The translations under genes and the position numbers were made by a program. DNA of 64,000 nucleotides from a candidate division TA06 bacterium (lineage in GTDB: Bacteria; Hydrothermota; DG-26; E44-bin18): the NCBI GenBank assembly GCA_004376575.1, contig SOJN01000075.1:15842-79841 (forward strand), given 5' to 3'. The notes under the pieces are model-generated. The model ran no database searches. It was given only the letters and a program-made list of their open reading frames with translations, and was not told the origin of the DNA. This document shows positions 14,858 through 30,517 of the stretch, piece by piece (the first letter of the stretch is position 1; every line of letters begins with the position of its first letter).

Positions 14858-15343
14858 TCAGGATTCTCGGCAGTATTTCTCTACTATTCTCCCGATAATG
14901 TCTCTTGTAGAGCGGCCTTCCAGGAGGTCGATTGTGACCACCTTACCACCAACCTTCTCCACAGTGTCCCTGCCTACAACCTCGTCTATCTTCCAGTCTC
15001 CGCCCTTGGCAAGCACGTCGGGGACAAGCAGTTCTATCAGTTCAGATGGTGTCTCGTCATCAAAGCTTGTCACATAGTCAACGCACTTTAGAGAAGCAAG
15101 CACAGCCATTCTGTCTTCAAGAGGAACGATCGGCCTCTCGTCGCCTTTTATTTTCTTGGTCGACGAGTCTGTGTTCACGCCGACAATCAACATGTCCCCG
15201 AGTTCTCCCGCAGCTCTTAGATACTCCACGTGGCCGCGGTGGAGGATGTCGAAACATCCGTTGGTAAAGACGACTCTTTTGCCATCCTCTTTCGCCTTTT
15301 GCCTGACTTTTACAATCTCTTCCTGTGAAACCACCTGACCCAC
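14858..15343 (-). CDS. cytidylyltransferase-like nucleotidyltransferase, HldE domain II-like (D-glycero-beta-D-manno-heptose-1-phosphate adenylyltransferase)
   Basis: 161 aa; 'VFTNGCFDILHRGHVEYL' HxGH nucleotidyltransferase motif; adjacent to an RfaE-I kinase homolog. Confidence 0.7.
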   Translation of the reverse strand: MGQVVSQEEIVKVRQKAKEDGKRVVFTNGCFDILHRGHVEYLRAAGELGDMLIVGVNTDSSTKKIKGDERPIVPLEDRMAVLASLKCVDYVTSFDDETPSELIELLVPDVLAKGGDWKIDEVVGRDTVEKVGGKVVTIDLLEGRSTRDIIGRIVEKYCRES

Positions 15344-15377: not shown

Positions 15378-16376
15378 TCAACTGCCTTCTATGGCATCAC
15401 CAGAGTCCTTGCCACATTCAAGCAGTTCCTGCCGGGTCACGACCGCAGTACCAAACTTGGAAACCTCAACGCTCGCCGCGCAGTTGGCAATCACTGCTCC
15501 CTCCCTCAAGGATGCACCTGCGGCCACGGCAAGGGTCATGACCGCGATGACCGTGTCGCCGGCTCCCGATGGGTCGTATATCTCTTTGAGTAAAGCGGGC
15601 ACAGACCAGAACCCCACATCATCAAGGAGCACCATCCCCTCAGACCCTCTGGTCATCAGAATAGGGGAGCCGTCCAGCCTCGACATCAGTTCTCTACAGC
15701 ACTCCTCAAGCTGGGTCACTCCCTTGATTCTCAATCCCAGGACAGCCTCTGCCTCCCTCTGGTTGGGCTTGAAAAGACTGACTCCCTTGTAGTCGAAGAA
15801 GTGTTTCCTTTTGGGGTCAGCTGTGCAGAATTTCCCGGCATCTTTAGCAATCTGTACAACCTCTTCTGCCAGACCTCCGCCAAATATTCCCTTATCGTAA
15901 TCTTCCAGAACAACACCGTCCACTCCGTCAATGTTCTTCCTGACCTCACTCAGAAGTCTACACCTCGCTTCCTCAGCTAAAGGTTCAGTGTTCTCCCTAT
16001 CAACTCTCACCACCTGCTGTGAATGGGCTATCACCCTTGACTTCTGTGTTGTATGTCTGTCGTTCGTCTTGACAATGGACGAACTGTTCAAACCCAGACC
16101 TGCTACCAAATCCAGAAGCTTCCTTCCAGAGAGGTCATCCCCCACAACTCCAACCAGCACGGGTTTTCCTCCCAGAGATGCAATGTTACCTGCCACATTA
16201 GCCGCTCCACCCGGGCGAATCGATTCGGATGTTATCTCTACAATGGGAACCGGAGCTTCCGGTGATATCCTTGAAACTCTTCCCCAGAGATACTCATCAA
16301 GCATCAAATCACCTATGACGAGTATCTTCTTGTCTACAAAACCAGAGACGAGTTCAGCGAACCTTTTCTTTTCCAC
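15378..16376 (-). CDS. carbohydrate kinase, HldE domain I-like (D-glycero-beta-D-manno-heptose-7-phosphate kinase)
   Basis: 332 aa PfkB-family fold; 'ILVIGDLMLDEY', 'PGGAANVA', C-terminal 'GAGDTV' motif. Confidence 0.75.
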   Translation of the reverse strand: MEKKRFAELVSGFVDKKILVIGDLMLDEYLWGRVSRISPEAPVPIVEITSESIRPGGAANVAGNIASLGGKPVLVGVVGDDLSGRKLLDLVAGLGLNSSSIVKTNDRHTTQKSRVIAHSQQVVRVDRENTEPLAEEARCRLLSEVRKNIDGVDGVVLEDYDKGIFGGGLAEEVVQIAKDAGKFCTADPKRKHFFDYKGVSLFKPNQREAEAVLGLRIKGVTQLEECCRELMSRLDGSPILMTRGSEGMVLLDDVGFWSVPALLKEIYDPSGAGDTVIAVMTLAVAAGASLREGAVIANCAASVEVSKFGTAVVTRQELLECGKDSGDAIEGS

Positions 16377-16932
16377 TTTTCAGTTCCTTCTCGTGAAGCG
16401 TCAAGAAGAGCTCCCTTGTCCTCTCAAAATACTTGATCGCGTTATCAGTCCGATAATCTGGATACGACCATCTCACCGGAATGAAAGAACCATGCTCAAA
16501 TATTAGCGTAACCTCTGCAAATATTCCACCCCAAAGATATATTCTATGAGAGAAGTTCTTCGTCGAGGCGAGCACAAGTTTTGAACCTGACACAAAGCCA
16601 GGATCAAGATTTACTCTCCGTCTCCCATCGGCGTCGGCCAGATCCCTTTCCATCCCAATCGCCTTCAGTTTTGCCCTCACTATCTCGGGCTGCGAAAATG
16701 TCCCCTCAAAACTGACCCACTCCCTTAAAAGGTCTTTCCCCATCTCAGGTTCGTAGTAGTCTGTAAAATCGAAGTTGATCAGTTCACTCCTGGTATCAAT
16801 CTTCCCGAATGCGTCCTCCAGCAACCTTTGAGCCGAAGAGAGAGCTGCCTCTTTTCCAATGAGGCCACATATGAGCTTGGCTTCGGGAGATATCTCCTCC
16901 AGCACAGTTCTCTTCTGTCCCTTCATCGCCAA
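16354..16932 (-). CDS. hypothetical protein (DUF4416-like)
   Basis: 192 aa soluble ORF with 'RVNLDPGF' motif resembling DUF4416; assignment from memory only. Confidence 0.4.
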   Translation of the reverse strand: MAMKGQKRTVLEEISPEAKLICGLIGKEAALSSAQRLLEDAFGKIDTRSELINFDFTDYYEPEMGKDLLREWVSFEGTFSQPEIVRAKLKAIGMERDLADADGRRRVNLDPGFVSGSKLVLASTKNFSHRIYLWGGIFAEVTLIFEHGSFIPVRWSYPDYRTDNAIKYFERTRELFLTLHEKELKSGKEKVR

Positions 16933-17690
16933 AGGTAGCCAAGGTAAATTCTGATAAGTTGAGCTCCCCAGAAAAGGCTGATTATTGAGCCTACTGCTAT
17001 GAAGGAACCGAAAGGAATCTCGGAGCCACCCTTTTTTCCCCTTAGAGCCATGATCGCCGCGCCCACGACCGCACCAAGGACGACTGAGAGAAAAAGACTC
17101 ACCAGCAAGAGCTTCCAGCCGAGAAAGATGCCCACCACTGCTGCCATTTTGATGTCACCGTCCCCCATCGCCTCCTTCTTGAAGATGAGCCGGCCAAGCC
17201 AGCCCACAAAAAACAGCACGCAAAATCCAAGGACCATCCCCAAAAGGCCGCTGACGATCTCCCCCGTTAATGCTGTGAAGATGAGTCCCAGAACGAGTGA
17301 AGGATAGATCACCCTGTCCGGGATGATCCGTTTGTCTATGTCAGTAAAGAAGATGACCAGCAGGGCAAGGCAAAAGTACCCGTATCCAAAGAATTCAATA
17401 GTCGGGCCGAATTTCATATAGACCAGCACAAGCATAAGAGCAGACGCGACCTCGACCACAGGGTATCGGAAGCTTATCCTCTGTCCGCAGTTACGGCATC
17501 TACCCTTGAGGAGGAGATAGCTCAACACAGGAATGTTGTCGCGTGACCTGATCGGCTCCCCACACTTTGGACAATGTGATCCCGGTCTCACTATCGATTT
17601 GCCTGAAGGAAGCCTGTGTATGCAGACGTTGAGAAAGGAACCTATGGCGAGTCCAAAGACAACAATGGCCGCGTACGATATGACCTGCAA
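16923..17690 (-). CDS. pilD: A24-family prepilin peptidase (type IV prepilin leader peptidase)
   Basis: 255 aa; N-terminal tetra-Cys 'CPKCGEPI...CRNCGQRI' zinc motif followed by polytopic membrane domain with acidic residues. Confidence 0.85.
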   Translation of the reverse strand: MQVISYAAIVVFGLAIGSFLNVCIHRLPSGKSIVRPGSHCPKCGEPIRSRDNIPVLSYLLLKGRCRNCGQRISFRYPVVEVASALMLVLVYMKFGPTIEFFGYGYFCLALLVIFFTDIDKRIIPDRVIYPSLVLGLIFTALTGEIVSGLLGMVLGFCVLFFVGWLGRLIFKKEAMGDGDIKMAAVVGIFLGWKLLLVSLFLSVVLGAVVGAAIMALRGKKGGSEIPFGSFIAVGSIISLFWGAQLIRIYLGYLWR

Positions 17691-18548
17691 TTACTCCTCT
17701 TTCCTTAAGGGACCTGAGGCAGGTTCAATCCTTCTCCGCCTCCAGTTGAATACGAAAGTGTCGCCGTCCGGAGCTACGGGCAGTTTCCGGACCAGGCCGG
17801 CCTCCACCAGCTCTGAAAGCGCATAAGGATAGCGGCCGAACCTTTTTCTGTATTCATTGACCTTCTCATCCAGTATCTCCGAGACGAGTCTCTTCCAGTA
17901 TCTGAGAGCAGTTACCTTCTCAACTTCGTTTTCTGAGCGGGTATAGATCTCGCCCCACAGATTTATCGCGGTTATCCTATCCCCACCCCTTTGGTATGAG
18001 AATGAGGCGAACCTGGCTGCCATCTCAGGCGCTCCATCCTTTGTGGAAGCCATCTCAAAATACTTCCCCGCCTTGAAAAAGTCTCTTAGGAAAACGTAGT
18101 AGATAAATCCCTTGGTGAAAGGTATTCTCCAGTTGTGAGGGTTGTTGCGCATCCCCTTATCAAGTAGCAAAAGGGCCCTCTCCGGCTCCTTTGCGTCGTC
18201 TGCAAGAAGTAAAGAACCGAACGTATAGGCGTCTGTGAACCTGGGATTCAGGGTTGTCAGGATGTCAAATATGTGACCCAGATATTCAAACTTCAGGTCT
18301 GTCAATCGGTGTTGGCCATAGTACTGTATCGCTCTCAGCCAGACAAGGTCTGCGGCCAGGTTGTCGTAGCCGACAGTTGCTACCCGCATAAACTTCCCTG
18401 ATGGGAAATACATCAATTCTCTGACAATTGCCTCTCTGGGTTTTCTTATCCTGTCAATTCTCGTCTGAATGAAGAAGACGCCGCTGCCTGCGGCGCAAAT
18501 GAGTAACCCTATGAGTAGACCATGGACAATTCTGGTGATACGTCTCAA
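17691..18548 (-). CDS. hypothetical membrane-anchored protein
   Basis: ORF 17691..18641 overlaps the upstream ABC permease by 97 nt; a TTG start at 18548 with GAGGAGAG RBS overlaps the permease TGA (TTGA), which suggests a coupled start; one N-terminal TM helix then a soluble domain. Confidence 0.45.
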   Translation of the reverse strand: MRRITRIVHGLLIGLLICAAGSGVFFIQTRIDRIRKPREAIVRELMYFPSGKFMRVATVGYDNLAADLVWLRAIQYYGQHRLTDLKFEYLGHIFDILTTLNPRFTDAYTFGSLLLADDAKEPERALLLLDKGMRNNPHNWRIPFTKGFIYYVFLRDFFKAGKYFEMASTKDGAPEMAARFASFSYQRGGDRITAINLWGEIYTRSENEVEKVTALRYWKRLVSEILDEKVNEYRKRFGRYPYALSELVEAGLVRKLPVAPDGDTFVFNWRRRRIEPASGPLRKEE

Positions 18549-19330
18549 AAATCTCTCCTCTGAAAGATGACCATGGATACGCTCAGGGCAACTATCGTGT
18601 AGATGAGTCCGTAGGTTATCGCATACACAATTTGAGACCACGGGACCGGCACATTATGAACAACCTCACCCCTTATGTTGAAGTTCGAAAGATTGGGAAG
18701 AACATAGTAGGCAAAGTTTGTAACCAGCTTGACCACAGCAGATTCTGAAATCTCTCCCAGTGCGCGAAGGTCCCTGGTAACGTGGCCAAGAAAGAAAACC
18801 GCAAACGCAAAGACTCCGCTGCCCACGGGCGTGGCAAAGGTGCTGAACAGTATGGCGATTGCAGTTATGACAGCCAGCTCAAAGAAGGTGAGCAGCACCG
18901 CTTTCCAGAGGTGTACGTGCAGGCTCCCTTCAGTTACTAGCACATAAAGGGTGAAGGCAAAACTCATGATGAGCACTACCAGAAACAGCACACACAACAG
19001 CCCGAGGTACTTGCCCAGCAGAAACTGCCATCTCTCAATCGGTTTTGGGACTATCAAGTAGGCAGTCTTTTTCTCTATCTCCTCATACACAAGCCTCGTC
19101 CCGGTCAGGATTGCGATAAGAGTCCCGAAGATTGAGATGGCAGCAAGGCCAAGGTCTTTCGATATCCTGGGCGCCTCCCCCAGGCTCAAGGGCCCGATTA
19201 TTATCCCGCTGGCCATGGTGAGTACGCCAAAAAAAAGGAGGACATAGAGGACCTTGTCTCTTATCGCCTGCCTGAACGTGTTCTTAACGACTGCAGCTAT
19301 TCTCAAGTGCCTTCCCCCAATAAGCTCCAA
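18545..19330 (-). CDS. ABC-2 family transporter permease
   Basis: 261 aa, about 6 TM segments, ABC-2-type permease topology; downstream of an ABC ATPase. Confidence 0.7.
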   Translation of the reverse strand: MELIGGRHLRIAAVVKNTFRQAIRDKVLYVLLFFGVLTMASGIIIGPLSLGEAPRISKDLGLAAISIFGTLIAILTGTRLVYEEIEKKTAYLIVPKPIERWQFLLGKYLGLLCVLFLVVLIMSFAFTLYVLVTEGSLHVHLWKAVLLTFFELAVITAIAILFSTFATPVGSGVFAFAVFFLGHVTRDLRALGEISESAVVKLVTNFAYYVLPNLSNFNIRGEVVHNVPVPWSQIVYAITYGLIYTIVALSVSMVIFQRRDF

Positions 19331-20255
19331 TCTCTTTCATGAAATGCTCTTCCAATGTTTTCTTTCTCGGAACGAGGGAAACCACCCGACCACCTGCGGC
19401 CAGTATCTCGCCTTGAATCTTACTGGCAACTTCTGGATGACTCACCTCTATCATCACTCTATCTCCGCTCACGATAACCCTCTCCCCCTTGGCCCCCAGT
19501 TTCTCCAGATGGGAACCGTCCAGCCCTTCGACAGTGATCTCAATAGATTCGACCTCTTCTTTCAGCAGTTCATCCAGTCTGCCCACGCTCATTAACCTCC
19601 CGTTGATCAGTATCCCCACTCTGTCGCATATCATCTCCACATCAGGGAGAATGTGGCTGGAGAAGAAGACAGTCTTCCCTTCCTTTTTCATCTTCAGTAT
19701 TATGTCTCTCACATCCCTCCTTCCGATGGGGTCAAGTCCGGCGAGGGGCTCATCGAGTATCACCAGCTCAGGGTCATTAATTAGAGCCTGGGCCAGGCCT
19801 ATCCGCTGCAGCATCCCCCTTGAGTAAGAACTTATTCTCATCCTACCAGCATCCCTGAGGTCAACCATGTCCAGGAGCTGCTCAACCTTTACCCTTCTTT
19901 TGTCTGTCCGCATCCCGAATATCTGGGCGCAAAAATCGAGAAGCTCCACGCCAGTCAGATACGGATAGAAATACGGCTGCTCGGGAAGAAAACCCATCTT
20001 CATCCTCAAGGATGCATTTCCCAGTTTTTCTCCAAAAAGAAGGGCTTCTCCGGAAGTAGGACTGAGAAGGCCGGTCAGCATTTTGATGGTTGTCGTTTTT
20101 CCAGCAGCGTTGGGACCCAAGAATCCAAATATCTCCCCCTCAACCACCGCAACGGAAAGCCCATCAACTGCCTTCACCTTCTTCTGCGCGATTGGACTTT
20201 TGTATATCTTTGTCAAGAGACGAGTTTCCAGTACTGGTTTCATTCTCTCCTCCAA
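19284..20255 (-). CDS. ABC transporter ATP-binding protein
   Basis: 323 aa; Walker A 'GPNAAGKTT', signature 'YSRGMLQR', Walker B 'LVILDEP'. Confidence 0.9.
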   Translation of the reverse strand: MEERMKPVLETRLLTKIYKSPIAQKKVKAVDGLSVAVVEGEIFGFLGPNAAGKTTTIKMLTGLLSPTSGEALLFGEKLGNASLRMKMGFLPEQPYFYPYLTGVELLDFCAQIFGMRTDKRRVKVEQLLDMVDLRDAGRMRISSYSRGMLQRIGLAQALINDPELVILDEPLAGLDPIGRRDVRDIILKMKKEGKTVFFSSHILPDVEMICDRVGILINGRLMSVGRLDELLKEEVESIEITVEGLDGSHLEKLGAKGERVIVSGDRVMIEVSHPEVASKIQGEILAAGGRVVSLVPRKKTLEEHFMKEIGAYWGKALENSCSR

Positions 20256-20299
20256 ACGCCCAAGCCCATAGTATATATAGACTTTCAGCCCCTGTCAAT

Positions 20300-20335
20300 G
20301 GAAAAATGGCAGGCCCGGAGCCTGCCATTTTTTCC
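20300..20335 (-). terminator. rho-independent (bidirectional) terminator downstream of pilin 1
   Basis: Perfect stem AATGGCAGGC/GCCTGCCATT flanked by A5/T6 runs. Confidence 0.75.
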
Positions 20336-20351
20336 ACAAGGCAACTCAAAA

Positions 20352-20858
20352 TCACTGTCCTGCTGTCAGAACCAGCACGAGAAGAGCGTCCTTTCCAAAA
20401 CCTCTGATGCTGTATTCCTCTGCCCAAGTAGATGCGCCAGTAGGGAAGCACTCATAGTAACTACATCCCGAAATCGTTCCAAGCGCGTTGCTCTCCCATG
20501 AATTAGTCGTAAGAAGGAACGGATTCTTGAACCCAAGCGGCAAGAGAACGTCGCTTCCCGACGGGCTTACACCATTTGCCGCACCAGCAATCGATTTCAC
20601 TGCGGTAGAGACCGTGGGATACCCGAGGGCAACCAACACTTCGCTTACCGTCGTTGCGCAGGTTCTGGGATATGCTCCCTCAGACATGGTCGAGAAGTCC
20701 TCGGCAGCAAGCTGGAGTGTGTGCATGTTCGACTTGAGCGAGGCTTCCTTTGCCCTGCTCCTCATCGACATGAAGTTCGGGATAGCAATGGCAGCCAGAA
20801 TTCCTATGATCACCACCACAATCATCAGCTCGATCAATGTGAATCCTTTCTCTCTCAT
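20352..20858 (-). CDS. type IV pilin (prepilin-type N-terminal cleavage/methylation domain), paralog 1
   Basis: 168 aa; leader 'MREKG|FTLIELMIVVVIIGILAAIAIPNF' class III signal with G-1/F+1/E+5; Cys pair in the C-terminal half. Confidence 0.85.
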   Translation of the reverse strand: MREKGFTLIELMIVVVIIGILAAIAIPNFMSMRSRAKEASLKSNMHTLQLAAEDFSTMSEGAYPRTCATTVSEVLVALGYPTVSTAVKSIAGAANGVSPSGSDVLLPLGFKNPFLLTTNSWESNALGTISGCSYYECFPTGASTWAEEYSIRGFGKDALLVLVLTAGQ

Positions 20859-20949
20859 TTGTGCCCCTTGCTGCCAACCTTCACAGGTTCCATTCTCTGA
20901 TCCAGAACGCCCAAGTCTATAGTATATATAGACTTTCAGTCACCTAAAT

Positions 20950-20985
20950 GAAGAAATGGCAGGCCCCAGGCCTGCCATTTCTTCC
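20950..20985 (-). terminator. rho-independent terminator downstream of pilin 2 (duplicate of the 20300 hairpin)
   Basis: Stem AAATGGCAGGCC/GGCCTGCCATTT; near-identical to the copy after pilin 1 and followed by the same 'ATAGTATATATAGACTTTCAG' flank. Confidence 0.7.
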
Positions 20986-21001
20986 ACAAGGCAACTCGAA
21001 A

Positions 21002-21517
21002 TTACTGTCCTGCCGTTAGTATCAGTACGAGAAGAGCGTCCTTACCATAACCTCTGATGCTGTATGCTATTTCCGCAACACCAGTGCCAGGAAGTGACTC
21101 GTAGTAAGTACATCCTGCAATGGCTCCAGGCGCATTGCTCTCCCAGGCATTCACCGTAGGAAGGAACGGATTCTTGAACGCAAGCGGCAAGAGCGGATTG
21201 TTGGCTGATTGGGGGGCTAGCCCGGCTACTGCACCAGCAATCGATTTCACTGCGGTAAGGACCGTGGGATACCCGAGGGCAACCAACACTTCGCTTACCG
21301 TCGTTGCGCAGGTTCTGGGATATGCTCCCTCAGACATGGTCGAGAAGTCCTCGGCAGCAAGCTGGAGTGTGTGCATGTTCGACTTGAGCGAGGCTTCCTT
21401 TGCCCTGCTCCTCATCGACATGAAGTTCGGGATAGCAATGGCAGCCAGAATTCCTATGATCACCACCACAATCATCAGCTCGATCAACGTGAATCCTTTC
21501 TCTTTCATTCGTTTCAC
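21002..21517 (-). CDS. type IV pilin, paralog 2 (tandem duplicate of paralog 1)
   Basis: 171 aa; identical to paralog 1 over the first ~85 mature residues, divergent C-terminal region; same Cys pair. Confidence 0.85.
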   Translation of the reverse strand: MKRMKEKGFTLIELMIVVVIIGILAAIAIPNFMSMRSRAKEASLKSNMHTLQLAAEDFSTMSEGAYPRTCATTVSEVLVALGYPTVLTAVKSIAGAVAGLAPQSANNPLLPLAFKNPFLPTVNAWESNAPGAIAGCTYYESLPGTGVAEIAYSIRGYGKDALLVLILTAGQ

Positions 21518-21591: not shown

Positions 21592-21607
21592 TCGCAAGAA
21601 GCGTGCC
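21592..21607 (-). promoter_or_regulatory. sigma-54 (-24/-12) promoter upstream of pilin 2
   Basis: Minus strand reads TGGCAC-GCTTC-TTGCG, matching TGGCAC-N5-TTGC; about 75 nt upstream of the ATG. Confidence 0.6.
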
Positions 21608-21786
21608 AATTCTGCCGGACCTGCAGAGCCAGGCCAGTATCATATTAAGAGACAGAGACTTAGGCCATCTGACCCGCCGTCTCATCAACTCCCTGCAACG
21701 GTCCATTTCTCGCAGGCTTTGCATAGTGCAAGGGTCGTGTTGCAAAACGCAAAGAGTAATAGAACGATACTGTTGTCCATGTTCGC

Positions 21787-23910
21787 CTATTTTTGAAAGA
21801 ACCAGTAGTGAAAAGAGTTATAACTTCCTATTATTTCAATAGTTGTCTTCTCTGAGAAGACAAACTGAGAAGGGACTTCTAGCACGGTTTCGCACCACGT
21901 GTCATTCCCGAGTGTCTTTATCCCAGCCCCCTCCAGCTTCAGGCCACTGACATATACATCAACGGGAGTAAATGGGGGCGCGTTAGAAGTAATATATCCG
22001 TCAGGAAGAACAGGCGAGTATCTGAAAGTCTTGAATCCTGAAACTGACCTTGTAACGATCCTCAGAGTCTTTCCTGGCAATGTGGATATAGTGAATCTTT
22101 CGCCCCCAAGGATAAGCCGCCCACCGTCTGCAATCTTTTTCTCGTCGCCATAGGTGGCAGAGTGTAAGCCTACATCCAGTCTCGCCCCGGACTCCCTGGA
22201 CAGAATCGAATATCTGCACCTTTGTTCATCTTCAAGGTAGCCAATATCAAGAGAATCGACAGCTATCCAGCCTTCATGATCAGAAACGGGCAACCTCCCA
22301 GCATCGACAGAACTGTAGTCCACAGCAAATATGGTCTGCCCCATTCCATAGATAGGTACAGGTTCGTAAACCTTATCACCAAACAGTTCATACAAGGATT
22401 CAATCCCCTCTGACTTTTCGGCGAAAGTGGACACGATGGCAATGTGTGAGGGCCTCTCGCCTTTTGTCATGTGTGAGACCTCTTCTGCGACAGCGCCCCA
22501 TCCCATTCTCCATCTACCGTAGAATCTGGCTGTGGTCAAGCCCAGGAGGTCAACTGTTTTCTTCCCCCCGTAGTATTTCAGAGCTCCAGCATCTACAAGT
22601 CCCAGCACGTCACCTTTCTTGAGCTTAGACCTCACCCACTCTGCCGGTTCCACGGTGGCGACCCGGACGAGCCGGGATTCAAATGCATACTGGACAAAGG
22701 AATACACAAGTCCAACGACCGATAGAACCACGAAGAAGGCGAGAAGACCATCCCTAAAAGAACGCTCGCCCAGCTTCTCGCCGAGAGCCGACGAGAGGAC
22801 AAAAACCCCTGCGACCATACATAAGATAAAGATCGGATAAAAAGGTATTAGATATCTGTGATGTTGAAATCCACTTGCAGATGTGAATGCGACGAATCCC
22901 ACCCCGATGGTGAAAACGGCAAGCAGAACTGTGAATCCAGAAATCTGCCGGCTGCGCAATTCTCTGGCAGCACCAGCAAAGGAACCGAAGAGAAAAAAGA
23001 ATAGAGCAAACGGCGCAAAGTAGGAGATTGGAGAGTGCCCGGCGAATCCGATGGTGGCAATGGACGGGTAGCCTGCTCCGAATATTCCCCTTATGGTATC
23101 AAGCACATAGCTTGTCCCAGCATAGATAAGGCTGAAGATGTGAGGGTCTATCCACAGGCTCTTTGAGGATCCAGAACTGGGAGAGAAATGACCTCCGACC
23201 GCCTTGTTCATGACCAGGTAGGCAATTGAAATCGAGAACGGAAGGAGAACCCAGGCCCAGCCTTTCTGAAGACCCTTCAAGCCTTCCTTCAGTCCTCTCA
23301 GGTGGCCTGCAAGCAGAAGAAGGAGCGCGAGGGAGCACCCCAACACCACTCCCTCAGGCCTGCTTATGGTCAGCAGGGCACATACCACCATCGTCCTCTT
23401 GTAAGTCTTTCCTTCCATATCCCTCAGGAAGGAGAGGACCGAGAAGAGCAGGAGAGTGGTAAAAAGCGGAATCTCAAGGCCTGAAAGATAACCCCAGACA
23501 ATCTGTCCGTTTACCAAAAACAGGACGGCAGCAGGGAGTCCAGCTCCTGCTCCCACAAGCGCCTCAACGATTCTGTACATGAGCCAGGCTGAAATCAAAA
23601 GCCCAGCGACTCCTATTAGAAAGGCCAGAAGGAATAGAAGCGGCCCACGGAAACCTATCAAGTAGCCAAACGAAAGGGTGATCCAGTAAAGAAAGCTGGT
23701 CATGCCAGTGGTAGGCGCATCACCGGTATTATACTGAAATGGGTGGCCTGACACCAGTTGTCTGGCATATTGAAAGTATATGTAGGAGTCATCAGTGGGA
23801 AACGTGGGATGGCCGTCCGTAAACCAGTTTGAGCCCCCGATGAAGACCGCGGAGACGAGCAGACTCAAGAGAAGAAAAACAAAACCAGATCTCTTATAGA
23901 AAGGTCCCAC
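21787..23910 (-). CDS. large polytopic membrane protein, GT-C glycosyltransferase-like (ArnT/PMT/TfpW-like topology)
   Basis: 707 aa; about 12 N-terminal TM helices with an early 'DDSYIYFQYARQL' loop motif, then a ~300-aa C-terminal soluble domain; sits between pilin genes. Confidence 0.4.
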   Translation of the reverse strand: MGPFYKRSGFVFLLLSLLVSAVFIGGSNWFTDGHPTFPTDDSYIYFQYARQLVSGHPFQYNTGDAPTTGMTSFLYWITLSFGYLIGFRGPLLFLLAFLIGVAGLLISAWLMYRIVEALVGAGAGLPAAVLFLVNGQIVWGYLSGLEIPLFTTLLLFSVLSFLRDMEGKTYKRTMVVCALLTISRPEGVVLGCSLALLLLLAGHLRGLKEGLKGLQKGWAWVLLPFSISIAYLVMNKAVGGHFSPSSGSSKSLWIDPHIFSLIYAGTSYVLDTIRGIFGAGYPSIATIGFAGHSPISYFAPFALFFFLFGSFAGAARELRSRQISGFTVLLAVFTIGVGFVAFTSASGFQHHRYLIPFYPIFILCMVAGVFVLSSALGEKLGERSFRDGLLAFFVVLSVVGLVYSFVQYAFESRLVRVATVEPAEWVRSKLKKGDVLGLVDAGALKYYGGKKTVDLLGLTTARFYGRWRMGWGAVAEEVSHMTKGERPSHIAIVSTFAEKSEGIESLYELFGDKVYEPVPIYGMGQTIFAVDYSSVDAGRLPVSDHEGWIAVDSLDIGYLEDEQRCRYSILSRESGARLDVGLHSATYGDEKKIADGGRLILGGERFTISTLPGKTLRIVTRSVSGFKTFRYSPVLPDGYITSNAPPFTPVDVYVSGLKLEGAGIKTLGNDTWCETVLEVPSQFVFSEKTTIEIIGSYNSFHYWFFQK

Positions 23911-23938: not shown

Positions 23939-24490
23939 TTAGTGTCCAGAGTGAAGAACTAGTGCCAGGGGTCTGCCTTTACCATAACCGCAGATCGAGT
24001 AGCCAATCGCGACCTCGCCATCACCTTTCACGCCGGACTCGTCGTATCCTGTGTAGTAGCTGCATCCTGCGGGAGGTGTTGCAGGCGGACCCTGAATGTT
24101 GTCCACTGCGTTACCACCTTTTCTAAAAGGATTTTTGAAGCCGTGGTGAGGATAAAGTAGAGCATATGGAGTGAATGGCGGAGCCCTCCTTCCGTCAGCA
24201 AGGGACCGTCTGAAGGGCACCTTACTTTCCCAGCCCGCAGGTACGGAAAAGCCTAGAGTTGAGAGGATGTCTCCTACTCTTGTATCAATGGACCCCGGAT
24301 AAAACCCTTCTGAGAGGGCGGCAAAGTCTTCCACGCTTATCTGAATCGTGTGCATGTTCGCCCGAAGCGCAGCCTCATAGGCTCTGTATCTCGAACTCAT
24401 GAAATTGGGGACTGCTATGGCGGCCACCAGACCGATGATGGCCACAACCATCATCAGTTCAATAAGTGTAAAACCACTACCCCTCCGCAT
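23939..24490 (-). CDS. type IV pilin, paralog 3
   Basis: Real start at the internal Met 'MRRGSG|FTLIELMMVVAIIGLVAAIAVPNF'; shares 'FKNPF', 'GCSYY', 'LxLVL' C-terminal motifs with paralogs 1 and 2. Confidence 0.8.
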   Translation of the reverse strand: MRRGSGFTLIELMMVVAIIGLVAAIAVPNFMSSRYRAYEAALRANMHTIQISVEDFAALSEGFYPGSIDTRVGDILSTLGFSVPAGWESKVPFRRSLADGRRAPPFTPYALLYPHHGFKNPFRKGGNAVDNIQGPPATPPAGCSYYTGYDESGVKGDGEVAIGYSICGYGKGRPLALVLHSGH

Positions 24491-24544
24491 CTGGGCCCCT
24501 TCGAAGGTTCTACCGAGCCTGTTAGCCTGTTTAGGCCTAGTAGT

Positions 24545-24560
24545 GGCAAGTTTTGTGCCA
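24545..24560 (-). promoter_or_regulatory. sigma-54 (-24/-12) promoter upstream of pilin 3
   Basis: Minus strand reads TGGCAC-AAAAC-TTGCC; about 45-55 nt upstream of the ATG at 24490. Confidence 0.65.
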
Positions 24561-25127: not shown

Positions 25128-26096
25128 TCAGAAGCTGTAAGACCCTGAGATTCGTGTTGTTCCTCCTAACTCATCGTGGTCTAGATGGGCGTAGTCAAAG
25201 CTGAACCCTTTGTAAGCCAGGCCAGCTCCGAAGGTGAGATGGCCAGCATCTATGCCGATTCTGCCTGACACCGTCTTTCTGTAAACATACTCAGCGCCAA
25301 AGTGCGACTCTCCACTCACAAGATCGTATGCAAACTGAGAAGCAACCTTTCTTCTGTTCTCGAATTTGATGTCCACATCTGCGGCCAGAGCGAATTTTCC
25401 TTTGGGAAAAGTGACAGGTGTATTGAGGGCAAAACCCAGGCTGGTTGTGGGCATAACGTATTCCCAGGTCCCTGTGTCCCAGCTTAGAACCGTTGTAGTA
25501 ATATCCCGTACGCTCAGGCCGAGAGAGACCTTCGAGTGGGGATTATAAATGGCACCTAGGTCCACACCAGCACCCAGCCCGCTCGCTGTGTACAAGTCGG
25601 CCTGAACGATCTTGAAGCTGCCTCCAAGCCTCAACTGTTCCCCTACCGCTCTGGAATAGTTGAGATAACCTACGTGGTAAGAGACGCTGACCCGTTTGTC
25701 AACTTCCGGTATGTTTTGTGGACCGGGCAGTTCGTCGGGGTCAGGCACCACGGTAAGAGCAATGTCATCAACTGCCAGCCTCAGAAGGGCAAAACCGATA
25801 GCGCTTCTTGCCCCCAGAAAATCCTTGAGAGGATGGACATAGGAGCCCCCGTCGCAACTGACAATCCCCCCGAATCTTTCAGAATGCTGCAGGAAGACCT
25901 GGCGGGTATCCATCTGCGAAGTGCCTGCTGGATTCCAATAAGGGGCGGTTGCATCGTCGCTTAAGGCGACAAATGCACTTCCCATGGCCAGAGACCTCGC
26001 TCCAACGCCCAGGCTCAAGAACTCACCAGCATATTTCTCTGCTTGGGAACTCCCGCTCAGAACTAAGAGGAGGGAAACTATCCAGATTTTTCTCAT
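25128..26096 (-). CDS. outer-membrane beta-barrel protein, PorV/PorQ-like (T9SS-associated family)
   Basis: 322 aa; signal peptide; 'FLSLGVGARSLAMGSAFVALSDDATAPYWNPAG' N-terminal motif recalled from PorV/PorQ-family proteins; alternating beta pattern; ends in aromatic F. Confidence 0.45.
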   Translation of the reverse strand: MRKIWIVSLLLVLSGSSQAEKYAGEFLSLGVGARSLAMGSAFVALSDDATAPYWNPAGTSQMDTRQVFLQHSERFGGIVSCDGGSYVHPLKDFLGARSAIGFALLRLAVDDIALTVVPDPDELPGPQNIPEVDKRVSVSYHVGYLNYSRAVGEQLRLGGSFKIVQADLYTASGLGAGVDLGAIYNPHSKVSLGLSVRDITTTVLSWDTGTWEYVMPTTSLGFALNTPVTFPKGKFALAADVDIKFENRRKVASQFAYDLVSGESHFGAEYVYRKTVSGRIGIDAGHLTFGAGLAYKGFSFDYAHLDHDELGGTTRISGSYSF

Positions 26097-27784: not shown

Positions 27785-28612
27785 TCACGCTAAAGAGGCC
27801 GGGAGCTTCCCTTCAAACACCAGTACAGCGGCCCCCTCGAGAAAAACGTTGGTTATCGATTCGCCATCCCGGCGAAAGTGAACCTTCAGCACCTCTCCGC
27901 CTGCAGTCGCACAGTGGACAGGGGATCTAAGGCCCTTCTTTATCCCCTCCACCAGAGCGACAGCGACACATCCTGTTCCGCAGGCGAGAGTCTCATCTTC
28001 AACGCCTCTTTCATAGGTTCTCACTTTGAGCCGACCACGAGGGAGAACCTGCACAAAATCCACGTTGGTCCCGTCTGGCTGAAACTTGGGTAGATACCGT
28101 ATCTCCTTTCCAAGTTCCAACACATCAATCTTCTTCACATCTTCAACCGCAACCACCACATGGGGAACTCCAGTGTGCACATAGCTGGCTGAAACCTCTC
28201 TGCCAGTCAATTCAAGCGGAACCTCGAGATCCATCTGAGCTGGATCGCTCATCTTCAGCTTGACAGCATCTTTATTGACAGACGCCGCATGTATCCCGTC
28301 CTTCGACCTGAACCTCATCTTACGCCCCGCTATCTCCTTCACGTGTGCATAAAGGGCAGCACACCTACCACCATTTCCGCACATCTCGGCCTCAGATCCG
28401 TCAGCATTAAAATATCTCATCAAGAAGTCACATTCGTCGTCCTTTTCAATCAGAATCATTCCGTCGGCGCCAATCCCAACTCTCCTTTTGCATACGCTCT
28501 GCGCGAACTCGCTAAGGTCTTTATTGAGCTTTCCGTTTCGGTTATCGAAAACGACGAAATCGTTCCCGCTGCCCGACATCTTCGCAAAACTTATGGTACG
28601 AGTTTTCTTCAT
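27785..28612 (-). CDS. dapF: diaminopimelate epimerase
   Basis: Start taken at 'MKKTRTISFAKMSGSGNDFVV' (DapF N-terminal motif); second 'GTGCVA' Cys-containing half-site motif. Confidence 0.85.
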   Translation of the reverse strand: MKKTRTISFAKMSGSGNDFVVFDNRNGKLNKDLSEFAQSVCKRRVGIGADGMILIEKDDECDFLMRYFNADGSEAEMCGNGGRCAALYAHVKEIAGRKMRFRSKDGIHAASVNKDAVKLKMSDPAQMDLEVPLELTGREVSASYVHTGVPHVVVAVEDVKKIDVLELGKEIRYLPKFQPDGTNVDFVQVLPRGRLKVRTYERGVEDETLACGTGCVAVALVEGIKKGLRSPVHCATAGGEVLKVHFRRDGESITNVFLEGAAVLVFEGKLPASLA

Positions 28613-30507
28613 CTTAAGAGCACCGCCTTGCGAGTGATGCAAACCCCGGAAGCCTCAAGCCTGACAAAATAGATTCCAGCAGACACATCACGGCCTTGTG
28701 AGCTCTTTCCGTCCCAGTGGAGCCTTAAAGAACCATGCTCTCCTTTGCTGAGCACCTTCACCAGTCTCCCGGTCACATCGTAGACGCTAACTTGTGAGGA
28801 TTTGTATTCTCCTTCAGGCGGAATGTAAGCCTCAATCACCGTACGCCCAAAGAATGGGTTGGGGCTGCAAGCATAAAGCCTGGGTCCTCCAAACCTACTT
28901 TTCCCCATGACCTCTTCCTGCACACCCACGCTCGAGTGGTATACGACGAAGTCCAGTGTATCGGTACCGCCGTTGACTATCAGGCTATCATAATAGAAGG
29001 GTATCGAGTAGTAGAGGGTGTCCGGAAGGTTCGTAATGAAAATGCCATATGTGTCCGGTTCTGATGGGAACCAGTACGCGCCAGACGGATCAGGATTTGC
29101 CATTCCTGATGCGTTCTGTGGAGGAAAGAAAGGAGTCTGCCAGTAGGAGAGTAGAACGACAAGTGTTTCGAGCGGGAATTGGAGTGAACCGGGCACACTC
29201 GGGTGAAAAGAAATCGTTCCGCCTATGGTATCTGTGGCTGGAACGAAGTTGAAGTTCACGGTGTCACCTCCACTGAACCCTGACCTGACGAAACCGTTTT
29301 CCACCACATGCCCGGGAATCCGATCTCCCAAGGGAGGGTCTATGGCTACGCGCCAGGTGAGAGTATCAGCGGAATTCACACCAAGCCTATATAGTCCTGT
29401 CGCGGAATCGCACAGGGTCATGGCCATTCCCACACCAGACGTTTCACACTCCGCAATCATGAAATGAAAAGTATCGAGTGGAACCGTATCCACAATGGTC
29501 ACTTTCCCTACTATTATAGTGTCCGCCCTATAGACAATAAAGTCTTCTACGAGACTGTCACCGGGGTTCAGGGTTATGGAATGTTCAGGCGGGATAATGT
29601 AGTAGGGCAATAGACCGAACCCCCAGAATCCTAGATTCCAGTCCCCTAATTCTGAGTCGCTGAAGCAAATGAAATACCGTCCTGGTTCGTGAAGGCTTGC
29701 CTCCTTTGCCTCCCAGGTGCTGTCGAAGGCTGCGATGCCTAGCCCCCGCGGCAGACTGTCCCCCAGGTCATCCACTACAGAACCAACCACTTTTGCGGAA
29801 GCAAGCTGATAGGTGTAGTCCATGTTTGTTAAGGTGTCCAGGAGCGTCACGGTGTCATAATCTGGCCTCACGTATGCGAATATATCACTCGAAGGACCGA
29901 TCTCGTACTGTTCACCCAGTGCACTGGAATCGAGTTCTATTGTGTAGTCCCCATTTGTATCGGTAAACGCCGTCCAGAAACCTCCTATCATGGTATCCGG
30001 GCTCGCCTCCACCTCTATCAACGCGAGACTGTTGTTAGGGGGAGTTACACCCTCGAGGCTAACTGTTCCACTTATGATGACGTCAGGTTGAGGAAGCGAC
30101 AAAACATACCCGGTATCAGAGGCGAACGAGCCATCTTCGTCAGTGGCTCTCACGATATATGTCCAGCCAGGAGTAAGCCCGGCGGGCCCGACGTCCATCC
30201 TTATCCACCCTGGCATTGTATCCCCATCCGGCATGCCGAAGTTAAACGTGAAGTCCTGGTCGATCTGCGGCATGCCTATAAGAAATTTGTCTCCAGGGGA
30301 AATATCTCCGGATTGGTCAGTATCCACAAAAACCTCCCACCACACACCGCGGCCATTAACATTGCAGCCGAAGGCGAGCGTATCGCCGCTTGTCATGCCG
30401 GCGGCAGACGTATCTCCATTCGCAGACATGTAAACATAATCTGTGCCAGTAGCCGAAAGAGAACAAAAAACTGCCAAGACAACTACCAACAACGCTGTCC
30501 GCAACAT
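28609..30507 (-). CDS. secreted protein with type IX secretion C-terminal sorting domain
   Basis: 632 aa; signal peptide; C-terminus 'NPFF..TVIEAYIP...VSVYDVTGRLVKVL...WDGKSSQGRDVSAGIYFVRL...KAVLLR' matches the Por_Secre_tail pattern. Confidence 0.7.
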   Translation of the reverse strand: MLRTALLVVVLAVFCSLSATGTDYVYMSANGDTSAAGMTSGDTLAFGCNVNGRGVWWEVFVDTDQSGDISPGDKFLIGMPQIDQDFTFNFGMPDGDTMPGWIRMDVGPAGLTPGWTYIVRATDEDGSFASDTGYVLSLPQPDVIISGTVSLEGVTPPNNSLALIEVEASPDTMIGGFWTAFTDTNGDYTIELDSSALGEQYEIGPSSDIFAYVRPDYDTVTLLDTLTNMDYTYQLASAKVVGSVVDDLGDSLPRGLGIAAFDSTWEAKEASLHEPGRYFICFSDSELGDWNLGFWGFGLLPYYIIPPEHSITLNPGDSLVEDFIVYRADTIIVGKVTIVDTVPLDTFHFMIAECETSGVGMAMTLCDSATGLYRLGVNSADTLTWRVAIDPPLGDRIPGHVVENGFVRSGFSGGDTVNFNFVPATDTIGGTISFHPSVPGSLQFPLETLVVLLSYWQTPFFPPQNASGMANPDPSGAYWFPSEPDTYGIFITNLPDTLYYSIPFYYDSLIVNGGTDTLDFVVYHSSVGVQEEVMGKSRFGGPRLYACSPNPFFGRTVIEAYIPPEGEYKSSQVSVYDVTGRLVKVLSKGEHGSLRLHWDGKSSQGRDVSAGIYFVRLEASGVCITRKAVLLR

Positions 30508-30517
30508 ACCGGGCCTC

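Follow-up and report, generated by a model that had tools for sequence, protein, structure and literature searches.

A GT-C-fold membrane protein encoded between pilin genes of a candidate division TA06 bacterium and its possible role in pilin glycosylation

The pilin locus and its surroundings

The DNA analysed here is a 64-kb stretch of the genome of a candidate division TA06 bacterium (64,000 nucleotides, hereafter the window), and the features of its pilin locus are collected in Table 1. A gene whose 707-aa product we call X lies between pilin 3 and the tandem pair of pilin 2 and pilin 1, as the earlier note had placed it, and a prepilin N-methylation motif is present in all three flanking reading frames (PF07963 at E=2e-7 to 7e-10, and also TIGR02532). 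The GTG start of X is located 28 nt past the stop codon of pilin 3, with an AGGAAG Shine-Dalgarno sequence 4 nt 5' of it. Since X has full-length homologs, at 25-67% identity, the reading frame is a real gene; no paralog of it was found in the window. The start of pilin 3 is most likely the internal ATG at 24493 (leader MRRGSG/FTLIE) and not the start of the 230-aa reading frame; its ortholog in the related locus L001 has 183 aa, and orthologs of pilin 3 sit upstream of X in L001, L087, L088 and L091.

Table 1. Features of the pilin/X locus, listed from pilin 3 to PilD
Feature	Position	Strand	Basis and remarks
σ54-type promoter consensus TGGCACAAAACTTGC	24546..24560	-	exact match; 53 nt upstream of pilin 3 ATG
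Pilin 3, prepilin, 184 aa from internal ATG	23939..24493	-	PF07963, TIGR02532, orthologs
X, GT-C-fold membrane protein, 707 aa, GTG start	21787..23910	-	ORF, homologs, model, Foldseek
X transmembrane GT-C module, residues 1-410, 11 TM	22681..23910	-	hydropathy, positive-inside loop charges, model secondary structure
X putative catalytic motif DDSYIYFQYAR, residues 40-50	23761..23793	-	conservation, model position
X periplasmic C-terminal domain, residues 424-707, α/β subdomain then jelly-roll β-sandwich	21790..22641	-	separate model, Foldseek
σ54-type promoter consensus TGGCACGCTTCTTGC	21594..21608	-	exact match; 77 nt upstream of pilin 2
Pilin 2, prepilin, 171 aa	21002..21517	-	ORF, PF07963, TIGR02532
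Hairpin + T-run after pilin 2, terminator-like	20951..20980	-	read from sequence; absent from automatic scan list
Pilin 1, prepilin, 168 aa, tandem duplicate of pilin 2	20352..20858	-	ORF, PF07963, TIGR02532
Duplicate hairpin + T-run after pilin 1	20301-20330	-	duplicate copy of pilin 2 hairpin
σ70-like TTGACA-17-TATACT before ABC ATPase	20298..20270	-	11/12 positions match
ABC transporter ATPase	19284..20255	-	PF00005 at 6.6e-26
ABC-2 type permease	18545..19330	-	PF12679 at 4.3e-13
316-aa membrane-anchored protein	17691..18641	-	no Pfam/NCBIfam match; travels with ABC transporter and PilD
PilD, prepilin peptidase/N-methyltransferase	16923..17690	-	PF06750 at 4e-37, PF01478 at 4e-21

The exact σ54 consensus occurs three times in the window against 0.11 expected, and all three copies fall in the pilin/X locus. 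The site before pilin 3 is kept at the same position in L001, L087 and L088 and is probably a promoter common to pilin 3 and X, which would then be carried on one transcript; the site before pilin 2 is kept downstream of X in L001, L002, L009/L089 and L088. Pilin 2 and pilin 1 share 82% identity, and the hairpin that follows pilin 2 falls inside the duplicated segment D2.

Downstream of the pilin and X genes come those for an ABC transporter and for PilD, the prepilin peptidase. In relatives, the ABC ATPase accompanies PilD, the ABC-2 permease is conserved alongside it, and orthologs of the 316-aa protein, located by tblastn, adjoin the permease and PilD genes in 6 of 40 groups. This order of pilin(s), ABC ATPase, ABC-2 permease, accessory protein and PilD mirrors the pilA-pilG/H/I-pilD block of Myxococcus and its relatives, in which PilGHI are ABC-transport proteins linked to pilD, and the Myxococcus PilA model matches the N-termini of the window pilins. 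We know of no X-like gene in Myxococcus clusters. Outside this locus, when the window was screened for donor-pathway genes and further pilus genes, only housekeeping genes and UppS were found. No polyprenyl-phosphate sugar synthase or flippase was found in the window, nor were D-Araf donor genes (DprE1, DprE2 or the PRPP transferase). By eye, RfaE-like heptose genes were recognised some 1 kb past the PilD operon.

Topology, fold and family of X

The AlphaFold2 model of X (pLDDT 88, pTM 0.87) and the positive-inside charge pattern place the N-terminus in the cytoplasm and the C-terminus outside, with 11 transmembrane helices in place of the approximately 12 proposed in the earlier note. Two other features described there were borne out, a large soluble C-terminal domain, which spans roughly residues 424-707 and is periplasmic, and an acidic motif, DDSYIYFQYAR, early in a periplasmic loop. 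In the model this motif opens the helix of the first periplasmic loop, about 10 residues past TM1. In an alignment of 21 homologs (A1) D40 never varies and D41 hardly does, each is at least 90% conserved in an alignment of 52 more distant family members (A2), and at least one Asp of the pair is kept in all sequences inspected. The other conserved residues, W139, G144, E146, P185-E186-G187, K250 and P356, also fall in periplasmic loops in the topology with 11 helices and a cytoplasmic N-terminus. The acidic motif and a set of periplasmic polar residues are kept in upwards of 70 sequences spanning many phyla, a pattern usual for active sites, and D40/D41 were equated with a known catalytic Asp by position in the topology, not by structural alignment.

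When the model was compared with the PDB by Foldseek, the best 38 matches were all GT-C enzymes (probability 1.00, E=1.6e-9 to 4.4e-5), among them STT3/AglB/PglB, ArnT, AftD/Emb/AftB, ALG9, DPY19 and PMT. On this predicted structure, membership of X in the GT-C fold superfamily is secure. The oligosaccharyltransferases STT3, AglB and PglB rank first (E=1.6e-9 to 2.4e-8), with ArnT, AftD and AftB scoring nearly equal to them; for ArnT, the structures 5f15 (E=4.5e-8) and 5ezm (E=9.6e-8) were recovered with a target-normalised TM of about 0.52, and AftB (9dlh) gives the lowest rmsd of the fold matches, 5.7 Å.

Sequence comparisons did not narrow the assignment further. Pfam and NCBIfam scans of X gave no match at all, and PDB sequence searches with X alone and with a 21-sequence profile gave noise only; the catalytic subunits of oligosaccharyltransferases were not matched in these sequence and profile searches. 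A relationship with ArnT was rejected after hhalign, run with the family profile and E. coli ArnT, returned a probability of 0.8%. ArnT/PMT_2 enzymes (PF13231; GT83/GT39-like) thus share the fold class of X and no detectable sequence relationship with it; the acceptor of ArnT is lipid A, and ArnT has no jelly-roll domain. Assignment to the PMTs (GT39) was likewise set aside, as X lacks any PMT, PMT_2 (even at E≤1) or MIR match and its soluble domain is C-terminal with a jelly-roll, although 5 of 52 family members had sub-threshold PMT_2 matches (best 3.3e-4). X is also neither an STT3/PglB/AglB enzyme (GT66), having no STT3 Pfam match and no WWD anywhere in its sequence, nor a Wzy_C enzyme (PF04932) of the PglL/TfpO kind, nor a YfhO/DUF2723 protein (PF09586, PF11028; TMEM260-like), with no match to these models either. 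The YfhO and DUF2723 models do match neighbours of X homologs, so they work on these genomes. The earlier note had classed X as a GT-C enzyme of the ArnT/PMT/TfpW type and had proposed profile searches against GT83/GT39, PglL/Wzy_C, YfhO and DUF2723. The fold stands, whereas the type was not supported by any sequence test run, and the PMT, PMT_2, Wzy_C, YfhO and DUF2723 profiles gave no match.

The C-terminal domain, modelled separately (pLDDT 86), gave weak Foldseek matches to the accessory β-sandwich of GH146, the Eph ligand-binding domain and CBM35/CBM6 (E=3e-4 to 5e-3), and no TPR match was found in X by Pfam. This domain was rejected as an arbiter between protein and glycan acceptors, since carbohydrate-binding modules and a peptide-binding domain match it equally weakly. 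A GT-C module followed by periplasmic β-sandwich module(s) is also the architecture of mycobacterial EmbA/B/C, AftD and AftB and of GT136 (Citrobacter ORF12). All of these enzymes are among the fold matches of X. They differ from it in that their substrates are cell-wall or O-antigen glycans and they have no pilus link, and they share no sequence similarity with it.

A first search, with 22 matches, had suggested that the X family is tiny, but an exhaustive profile search overturned this and recovered 1,836 clusters at 50% identity (E≤1e-30). The family is large and unnamed, without a Pfam model or a characterized member, and no earlier description of it in pilus clusters was found in the literature searched. 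Automated names on some members are 'ArnT family glycosyltransferase' and 'RgtA/B/C/D-like'.

Gene neighbourhoods in relatives

The link between X and pilins noticed earlier is not a one-off. A prepilin gene lies within 1 kb of X on the same strand in every relative at 33% identity or above, and adjacency to pilin or PilD genes recurs, in several gene orders, in relatives down to 27-33% identity. When family members were made non-redundant at 50% identity, PilD was found within 10 kb of the X family gene in 10 of the 40 resulting groups and within 3 kb in 7 of them. The PilD-linked groups show at least 6 different gene arrangements. X is flanked as pilin-X-pilin-pilin in L001, follows a pilin in Edwardsbacteria (pilin-X), and in Acidobacteriota lies divergent from PilD at 123-268 bp. 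In L002 the order is GT4/GT2/PMT/GT1-X-pilin-ABC-ABC2-PilD, and in L152, which holds a complete pilMNOPQ cluster, it is pilQ-O-N-M, X, PilD-ABC2-ABC-pilin. Another TA06 locus, L089, carries in order Wzy_C+TPR, TMEM260-like+TPR, X, two pilins, PilD, a histidine kinase (HK) and a σ54-dependent response regulator (σ54-RR). The Wzy_C match there (L089:35-1846) reached 5e-18, and this gene, of what we take to be the family of the PglL/TfpO pilin O-oligosaccharyltransferases, marks the L089 locus as a pilin-glycosylation island. A confident match of X to an unrelated family coupled with no co-occurrence with pilins, which the earlier note had said would speak against its proposal, was looked for and did not occur.

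Pilin linkage as a family-wide trait of X was rejected. About 75% of the family groups have no pilus gene nearby and neighbour F420 genes or PMT_2-TPR partners instead, so pilin cannot be the family-wide acceptor. Examination of 13 X-adjacent pilins revealed no Ser/Thr-rich glycosylation tract, for which the earlier note had suggested looking, and few conserved Ser/Thr columns.

A possible role in pilin glycosylation

Because most of the family is pilus-free and these pilins hold no Ser/Thr-rich tract, we infer a role for X from gene context. Pilin glycosylation is the role best supported by that context, and we consider it about evenly poised between right and wrong. The same middling confidence applies to the fuller proposal of a GT-C glycosyltransferase that faces the periplasm and serves the type IVa pilus system as a dedicated enzyme. 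In such a role, X would draw on a polyprenyl-phosphate-linked sugar donor on the periplasmic side of the inner membrane, and the D40/D41 pair that opens the first periplasmic loop would form the putative catalytic or metal-binding centre. Pilin subunits would receive the sugar, either on Ser/Thr itself or on a glycan that they already carry, probably at a stage when their N-terminal helix still holds them in the inner membrane, before PilD-dependent fibre assembly. The jelly-roll domain may help to hold the acceptor, and expression of X would be coupled to that of pilin 3 through the common σ54 promoter.

The closest known parallel is TfpW of Pseudomonas aeruginosa group IV, a GT-C pilin D-arabinofuranosyltransferase whose periplasmic DDX motif is needed to glycosylate pilin. 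Both are polytopic GT-C-type membrane proteins that have 11 transmembrane segments and whose first periplasmic loop bears a DD(X) motif, and both are encoded directly beside a pilin gene, an adjacency that X keeps in its relatives. However, TfpW has a C-terminal TPR domain, in place of the α/β subdomain and jelly-roll β-sandwich of X, and a proline-rich YX6PFX7P motif, and its gene lies downstream of pilA, whereas the X gene has pilins on both sides and follows pilin 3. In the proposed role X would be a functional analogue of TfpW; it stands outside the ArnT and PMT families and, judged by the TPR domain described for TfpW, probably outside the TfpW family too. TfpO (PilO)/PglL enzymes occupy the same genomic niche, that of a membrane glycosylation enzyme encoded beside a pilin gene and acting in the periplasm, but they are unrelated to X in fold and family, since X matches the GT-C fold and not Wzy_C.

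Among the alternatives, an elongating or decorating GT-C enzyme survives best, though we think it unlikely. X would then add sugars to a glycan, on pilins or other glycoproteins or in a pilus-associated exopolysaccharide, a separate enzyme would initiate the protein glycans, and the jelly-roll would be a carbohydrate-binding module. A second membrane glycosyltransferase repeatedly adjoins X homologs, namely the TMEM260-like+TPR and Wzy_C+TPR proteins in TA06, a YfhO-like protein in Acidobacteriota, PMT_2 in L108 and PMT_2+TPR in Latescibacterota and Gemmatimonadota (with a 4-nt overlap in L021), and this frequent pairing means that X may extend a glycan rather than initiate one on protein. The PMT, GT1, GT2 and GT4 genes upstream of X in L002 point the same way, as do the CBM35/CBM6 and glycosidase accessory matches of the β-sandwich, given that the carbohydrate-binding modules of the GT-C enzymes Emb, AftD and GT136 bind glycan acceptors. 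Nevertheless, the clade of the window has no partner glycosyltransferase nearby and X is the sole glycosylation gene in its pilin operon, while the carbohydrate-binding matches are weak (E 3e-4 or worse) and the peptide-binding Eph domain is an equally good match.

We find it less plausible again that X is a general cell-envelope enzyme acting on a lipid, LPS core or lipid A, peptidoglycan, another polymer or many proteins, and owes its pilus position to inherited synteny. The size of the family, its mostly pilus-free distribution, its members in Chloroflexota and actinomycetes beside unrelated genes, the ArnT-type automated names and the RfaE-like genes near the PilD operon of the window are all compatible with such an enzyme. 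Inertia is nevertheless insufficient to explain a pilus link that persists at identities as low as 27% and through no fewer than 6 different orders and orientations of the genes. PilD, which is normally single-copy, would be expected in well under 1% of random 22-kb neighbourhoods by a rough estimate, against the 10 of 40 groups observed, and a promoter common to X and a pilin also argues against a general envelope role.

A catalytically inactive GT-C-fold scaffold that aids pilin handling or pilus assembly, in the manner of PIG-U of the GPI transamidase, is very improbable; the fold matches do include PIG-U chains, at E=4e-4 to 5e-4, but catalytic GT-C enzymes match X far better, and the conserved acidic motif and periplasmic polar residues argue against an inactive protein. 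Least credible of all is an N-oligosaccharyltransferase that moves a preassembled undecaprenyl-pyrophosphate-linked glycan to Asn of pilins, as the PglB/AglB/STT3 enzymes (GT66) glycosylate proteins that include archaeal pilins and archaellins, for although these are the top Foldseek matches and the ABC-2 transporter of the cluster could export a lipid-linked glycan, X has no STT3 or other Pfam match, no WWD[YW]G motif and a C-terminal jelly-roll unlike their periplasmic domain, and ArnT, AftD and AftB match its fold almost as well.

To our knowledge, bacterial pilin glycosylation is carried out by Wzy_C-type oligosaccharyltransferases and by one GT-C enzyme, TfpW. If X does glycosylate pilin, it would represent a second GT-C route, distinct from TfpW as that enzyme is described, and one that appears common in environmentally dominant, uncultured phyla. 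A bolder extension, which we regard as improbable, is that X is the founding member of a new GT-C family at the CAZy level, within which one clade forms, with the ABC ATPase, the ABC-2 permease, the 316-aa protein and PilD, a dedicated pilin-maturation module that is spread widely through Acidobacteriota, TA06, Edwardsbacteria and further uncultured lineages, where a PilGHI-like transporter would export a lipid-linked glycan and X would transfer it to pilins. Such a module would give PilGHI-type transporters their first biochemical role. Pilin glycosylation changes the surface chemistry of the pilus and, as one preprint reports, protects Pseudomonas against pilus-specific phages (10.1101/150227). 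Whatever the acceptor of X, a large GT-C family has been identified, and its cultured members in Prauserella and Saccharomonospora are open to direct study.

Family and fold of the membrane protein

The earlier note had proposed a GT-C-like pilin glycosyltransferase for the 707-residue membrane protein encoded between the pilin genes, here called X. The gene is real: it has full-length homologs of 25-67% identity, and by exhaustive profile search its family comprises 1,836 clusters (50% identity, E≤1e-30). The ORF, its pilin-flanked position, the acidic motif and the C-terminal soluble domain had been described correctly save for small details. X is polytopic as claimed, but its TM helices number 11 instead of about 12 by hydropathy, loop charges and the structure model, the N-terminus lying in the cytoplasm and a C-terminal domain of ~285 residues in the periplasm; likewise, pilin 3 lies where it was placed, but is shorter, most likely starting at an internal ATG. 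The motif DDSYIYFQYAR occupies residues 40-50, after TM1; the homolog alignment shows no variation at D40 and almost none at D41, and among 52 more distant members the conservation of both is ≥90%. Together with Y48, Y60, N61, W139, E146, P185-E186-G187 and K250 they make up the conserved polar residues of X, every one of which falls in loops assigned to the periplasm by the topology, as expected of a GT-C active site.

X matched no Pfam or NCBIfam family at E≤1, and nothing in the PDB with either a single sequence or a 21-sequence profile. The suggested ArnT/PMT type was not upheld by sequence, hhalign giving the family profile a probability of 0.8% against E. coli ArnT, and X does not belong by sequence to the ArnT, PMT, STT3, Wzy_C, YfhO or TMEM260-like families. 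PMT_2 was touched by 5 of 52 diverse members (best E=3.3e-4). The public names of family members ('hypothetical protein', 'ArnT family glycosyltransferase', 'RgtA/B/C/D-like domain-containing protein') are automated labels, and the family has no characterized member. The GT-C fold itself was corroborated by the AlphaFold2 model (pLDDT 88, pTM 0.87), whose best 38 Foldseek PDB matches are all GT-C enzymes at probability 1.00: STT3/AglB/PglB at 1.6e-9 to 2.4e-8, ArnT at 4.5e-8, and AftD, EmbA/B/C, AftB, ALG9, DPY19, AftA and Pmt4. The predicted fold is unambiguous, and on this model the GT-C assignment is almost certainly secure. Modelled separately (pLDDT 86), the C-terminal domain comprises an α/β subdomain and, after it, a jelly-roll β-sandwich, with weak Foldseek resemblance to a GH146 accessory domain, an Eph ligand-binding domain and CBM35/CBM6 (E=3e-4 to 5e-3); since these matches span carbohydrate-binding and peptide-binding modules, the domain does not reveal the acceptor.

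Organization of the pilin locus

All three prepilins flanking X matched the N-methylation motif PF07963 and TIGR02532. Farther downstream on the same strand lie genes for an ABC ATPase, an ABC-2 permease, a 316-aa protein, the prepilin peptidase PilD and a DUF4416 protein. The GTG start of X follows the pilin 3 stop by 28 nt, with AGGAAG 4 nt before it and no hairpin between the two. The exact σ54 consensus TGGCAC-N5-TTGC occurs 3 times in the 64-kb window against 0.11 expected (0 of 100 shuffles reached 3), always on the gene strand and inside the pilin-X locus; site 3 may serve pilin 1 as its promoter or may match by chance. A hairpin and T-run follow pilin 2 and also pilin 1, and a near-perfect σ70-like promoter stands ahead of the ABC gene. 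From the sequence we infer transcription units running from σ54 through pilin 3 and X, from σ54 through pilin 2 (pilin 1 separately) and from σ70 through the ABC, ABC-2, 316-aa and PilD genes. Given such a pilin 3-X unit, X is most likely co-expressed with a pilin.

Features of the window and of related loci carrying homologs of X (L numbers; percentages are identity)
Feature	Coordinates	Strand	Remarks
X	21787-23910	minus	ORF, 707 residues
Pilin 3	23939-24493		upstream of X; counted from internal ATG
Pilin 2	21002-21517		downstream of X
Pilin 1	20352-20858		downstream of X
Pilin 1/2 duplication	20297-20862 and 20947-21512		650-bp tandem
σ54 site 1		gene strand	exact consensus 53 nt before pilin 3; position kept in related loci
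σ54 site 2		gene strand	exact consensus 77 nt before pilin 2; position kept in related loci
σ54 site 3, TGGCACTGGTGTTGC	21075-21089	gene strand	exact consensus inside pilin 2 3' coding end, 217 nt upstream of pilin 1
316-aa protein	17691-18641		membrane-anchored
PfkB-type heptose kinase	15378-16376		RfaE/HldE-like domain by eye
Cytidylyltransferase-like adenylyltransferase	14858-15343		RfaE/HldE-like domain by eye
PorV/PorQ-family protein near two large secreted proteins	25128-26096 and 28609-32263		NF033709 at 1.7e-32
L001 (57%)			pilin-X-pilin-pilin
L002 (43%)			GT4, GT2, PMT, GT1, X, pilin, then ABC-ABC2-PilD
TA06 (33%)			Wzy_C+TPR, TMEM260-like+TPR, X, pilin, pilin, PilD, histidine kinase, σ54 regulator
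Edwardsbacteria			pilin-X
Acidobacteriota			PilD 123-268 bp upstream, divergent; minor-pilin/PilY1-like genes beyond PilD; YfhO-like GT-C downstream
Soil lineage (27%)			pilQ-(P)-O-N-M divergent from X, then PilD, ABC2, ABC, pilin of same 'NMH' family
Pairing, L089	35-4551		X homolog and second glycosyltransferase
Pairing, L017	12134-14074		as L089
Pairing, L021	12046-13995		as L089
Pairing, L075	12257-14413		as L089
Pairing, L002	4845-7895		as L089
Tandem X paralogs, L004	7208-13382		703 and 698 aa
Tandem X paralogs, L010	1064-7019		703 and 698 aa
Longer Chloroflexota members, L006	1-8000		836-875 aa
Longer Chloroflexota members, L007	1-8000		836-875 aa

The tandem duplication that produced pilins 1 and 2 includes the terminator region. 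Identity is 98% over their 5' 282 nt (N-terminal helix) but only 85-87% in the 3' halves; at the protein level it is 82%, every difference lying in the exposed C-terminal half, a pattern that points to gene conversion of the 5' end or to diversifying selection acting on the exposed portion. The 316-aa protein has no Pfam or NCBIfam match and always accompanies the ABC ATPase, ABC-2 permease and PilD (6 of 40 groups; orthologs in L002, L045, L088, L101 and L152). The pilin-ABC-ABC2-accessory-PilD block mirrors the pilA-pilGHI-pilD order of Myxococcus, and the 316-aa protein may be the counterpart of PilG.

The two RfaE/HldE-like ORFs just past the PilD-DUF4416 genes could serve ADP-heptose synthesis and could be relevant to a glycan donor. 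The L001 orthologs of the two large secreted proteins carry FG-GAP and FlgD_ig-type C-terminal domains, and a PorV/PorQ-family outer-membrane protein near secreted proteins with such domains points to type IX secretion and to an FCB-group-like organism.

Distribution of the family and proximity to pilus genes

Scans for prepilin motifs and for the PilD, ABC, ABC2 and 316-aa genes of the window covered 166 related loci drawn from reference genomes and metagenomes. Members of the family are found in TA06, Edwardsbacteria, Latescibacterota, Gemmatimonadota, Acidobacteriota, Chloroflexota, Nitrospira and cultured actinomycetes. The majority is not pilus-linked, and the pilus-linked share is a substantial minority. 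Chloroflexota members adjoin F420-biosynthesis genes; the longer ones, on Chloroflexota-like contigs, have an additional ~140-aa C-terminal domain and come straight after cofC, cofD, cofE, a nitroreductase-like gene and a luciferase-like monooxygenase gene (12-15 non-redundant groups). The Latescibacterota and Gemmatimonadota members, each with a PMT_2+TPR GT-C gene directly after it, likewise count among those not linked to pili. One lineage has its tandem X paralogs between parA/soj and parB.

No relative at ≥33% identity lacks a same-strand prepilin gene within 1 kb, and PilD lies within 10 kb in 10 of 40 groups (50%-identity clustering) and within 3 kb in 7. PilD is normally single-copy, and therefore its chance occurrence in a random neighbourhood of like size is very low, far less than 1% of cases by our own rough estimate. 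In a NJ tree, members with directly adjacent pilins form one clade and the remaining PilD-linked members fall in at least 3 further clades. The proximity has outlasted extensive rearrangement and divergence, which speaks for a functional tie to the type IVa pilus system and not for inherited synteny. Six soil-lineage loci (L101, L111, L116, L117, L121, L126) also encode, ~4.9 kb from X on the minus strand, a ~730-aa protein with a prepilin-type N-terminal motif, unusually large for a pilin-like protein.

Candidate role in pilin glycosylation

The best-supported reading, to which we give roughly even chances, is that X is a pilin glycosyltransferase; such a role is plausible and rests on comparative evidence, no longer on one adjacency. 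X would be a periplasm-facing GT-C transferase that uses a polyprenyl-phosphate-linked sugar and modifies pilins while they stay anchored in the inner membrane. We infer catalysis, the sugar donor and pilin as acceptor, and X may either start on Ser/Thr or extend an existing glycan. TfpW of Pseudomonas aeruginosa needs its DDX motif for pilin glycosylation, a role that D40/D41 would take in X. Like TfpW, X has 11 TM helices in a GT-C fold, carries a periplasmic DD motif and is encoded beside a pilin gene, but TfpW is defined by a C-terminal TPR domain that X does not have.

A second membrane glycosyltransferase repeatedly accompanies the X homologs, and the stop codon of one gene often overlaps the start codon of the other. 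In TA06 the partners are Wzy_C+TPR and TMEM260-like+TPR proteins, in Latescibacterota and Gemmatimonadota a PMT_2+TPR GT-C encoded directly after the X homolog, in Acidobacteriota a YfhO-like protein, and in L002 PMT+GT1. This hints at two-enzyme periplasmic glycosylation pathways. The PglL/TfpO pilin oligosaccharyltransferases belong to the Wzy_C family, and the TA06 locus, with X and a Wzy_C-family gene beside pilins and PilD, looks like a pilin-glycosylation island.

Several points weigh against a simple picture of pilin glycosylation and hold its grade near even. The recurrent pilus link is in keeping with the earlier note, but the Ser/Thr-rich pilin loops it looked to did not appear, no such tract being found in the X-adjacent pilins; no donor-pathway gene was found in the 64-kb window; X is often paired with another GT-C; and the nearest architectures to X (Emb, AftD, AftB, GT136) are GT-C enzymes with β-sandwich modules, which usually act on glycans. 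That X extends a glycan, or has another pilus-associated acceptor, is a possible but unlikely alternative. Somewhat less likely still is a general envelope role with coincidental synteny, against which stands the persistence of pilus genes nearby. An N-oligosaccharyltransferase, X not being an STT3 member by sequence, and a non-catalytic scaffold are each very improbable.

The pairing of a GT-C gene with a pilin gene is already known, with TfpW as the precedent. What is new about the pilin glycosyltransferase candidate is that it belongs to a separate large family for which neither Pfam nor NCBIfam has a model, that its periplasmic domain differs from that of TfpW, and that its link to pilus clusters extends over several phyla, mostly uncultured ones.
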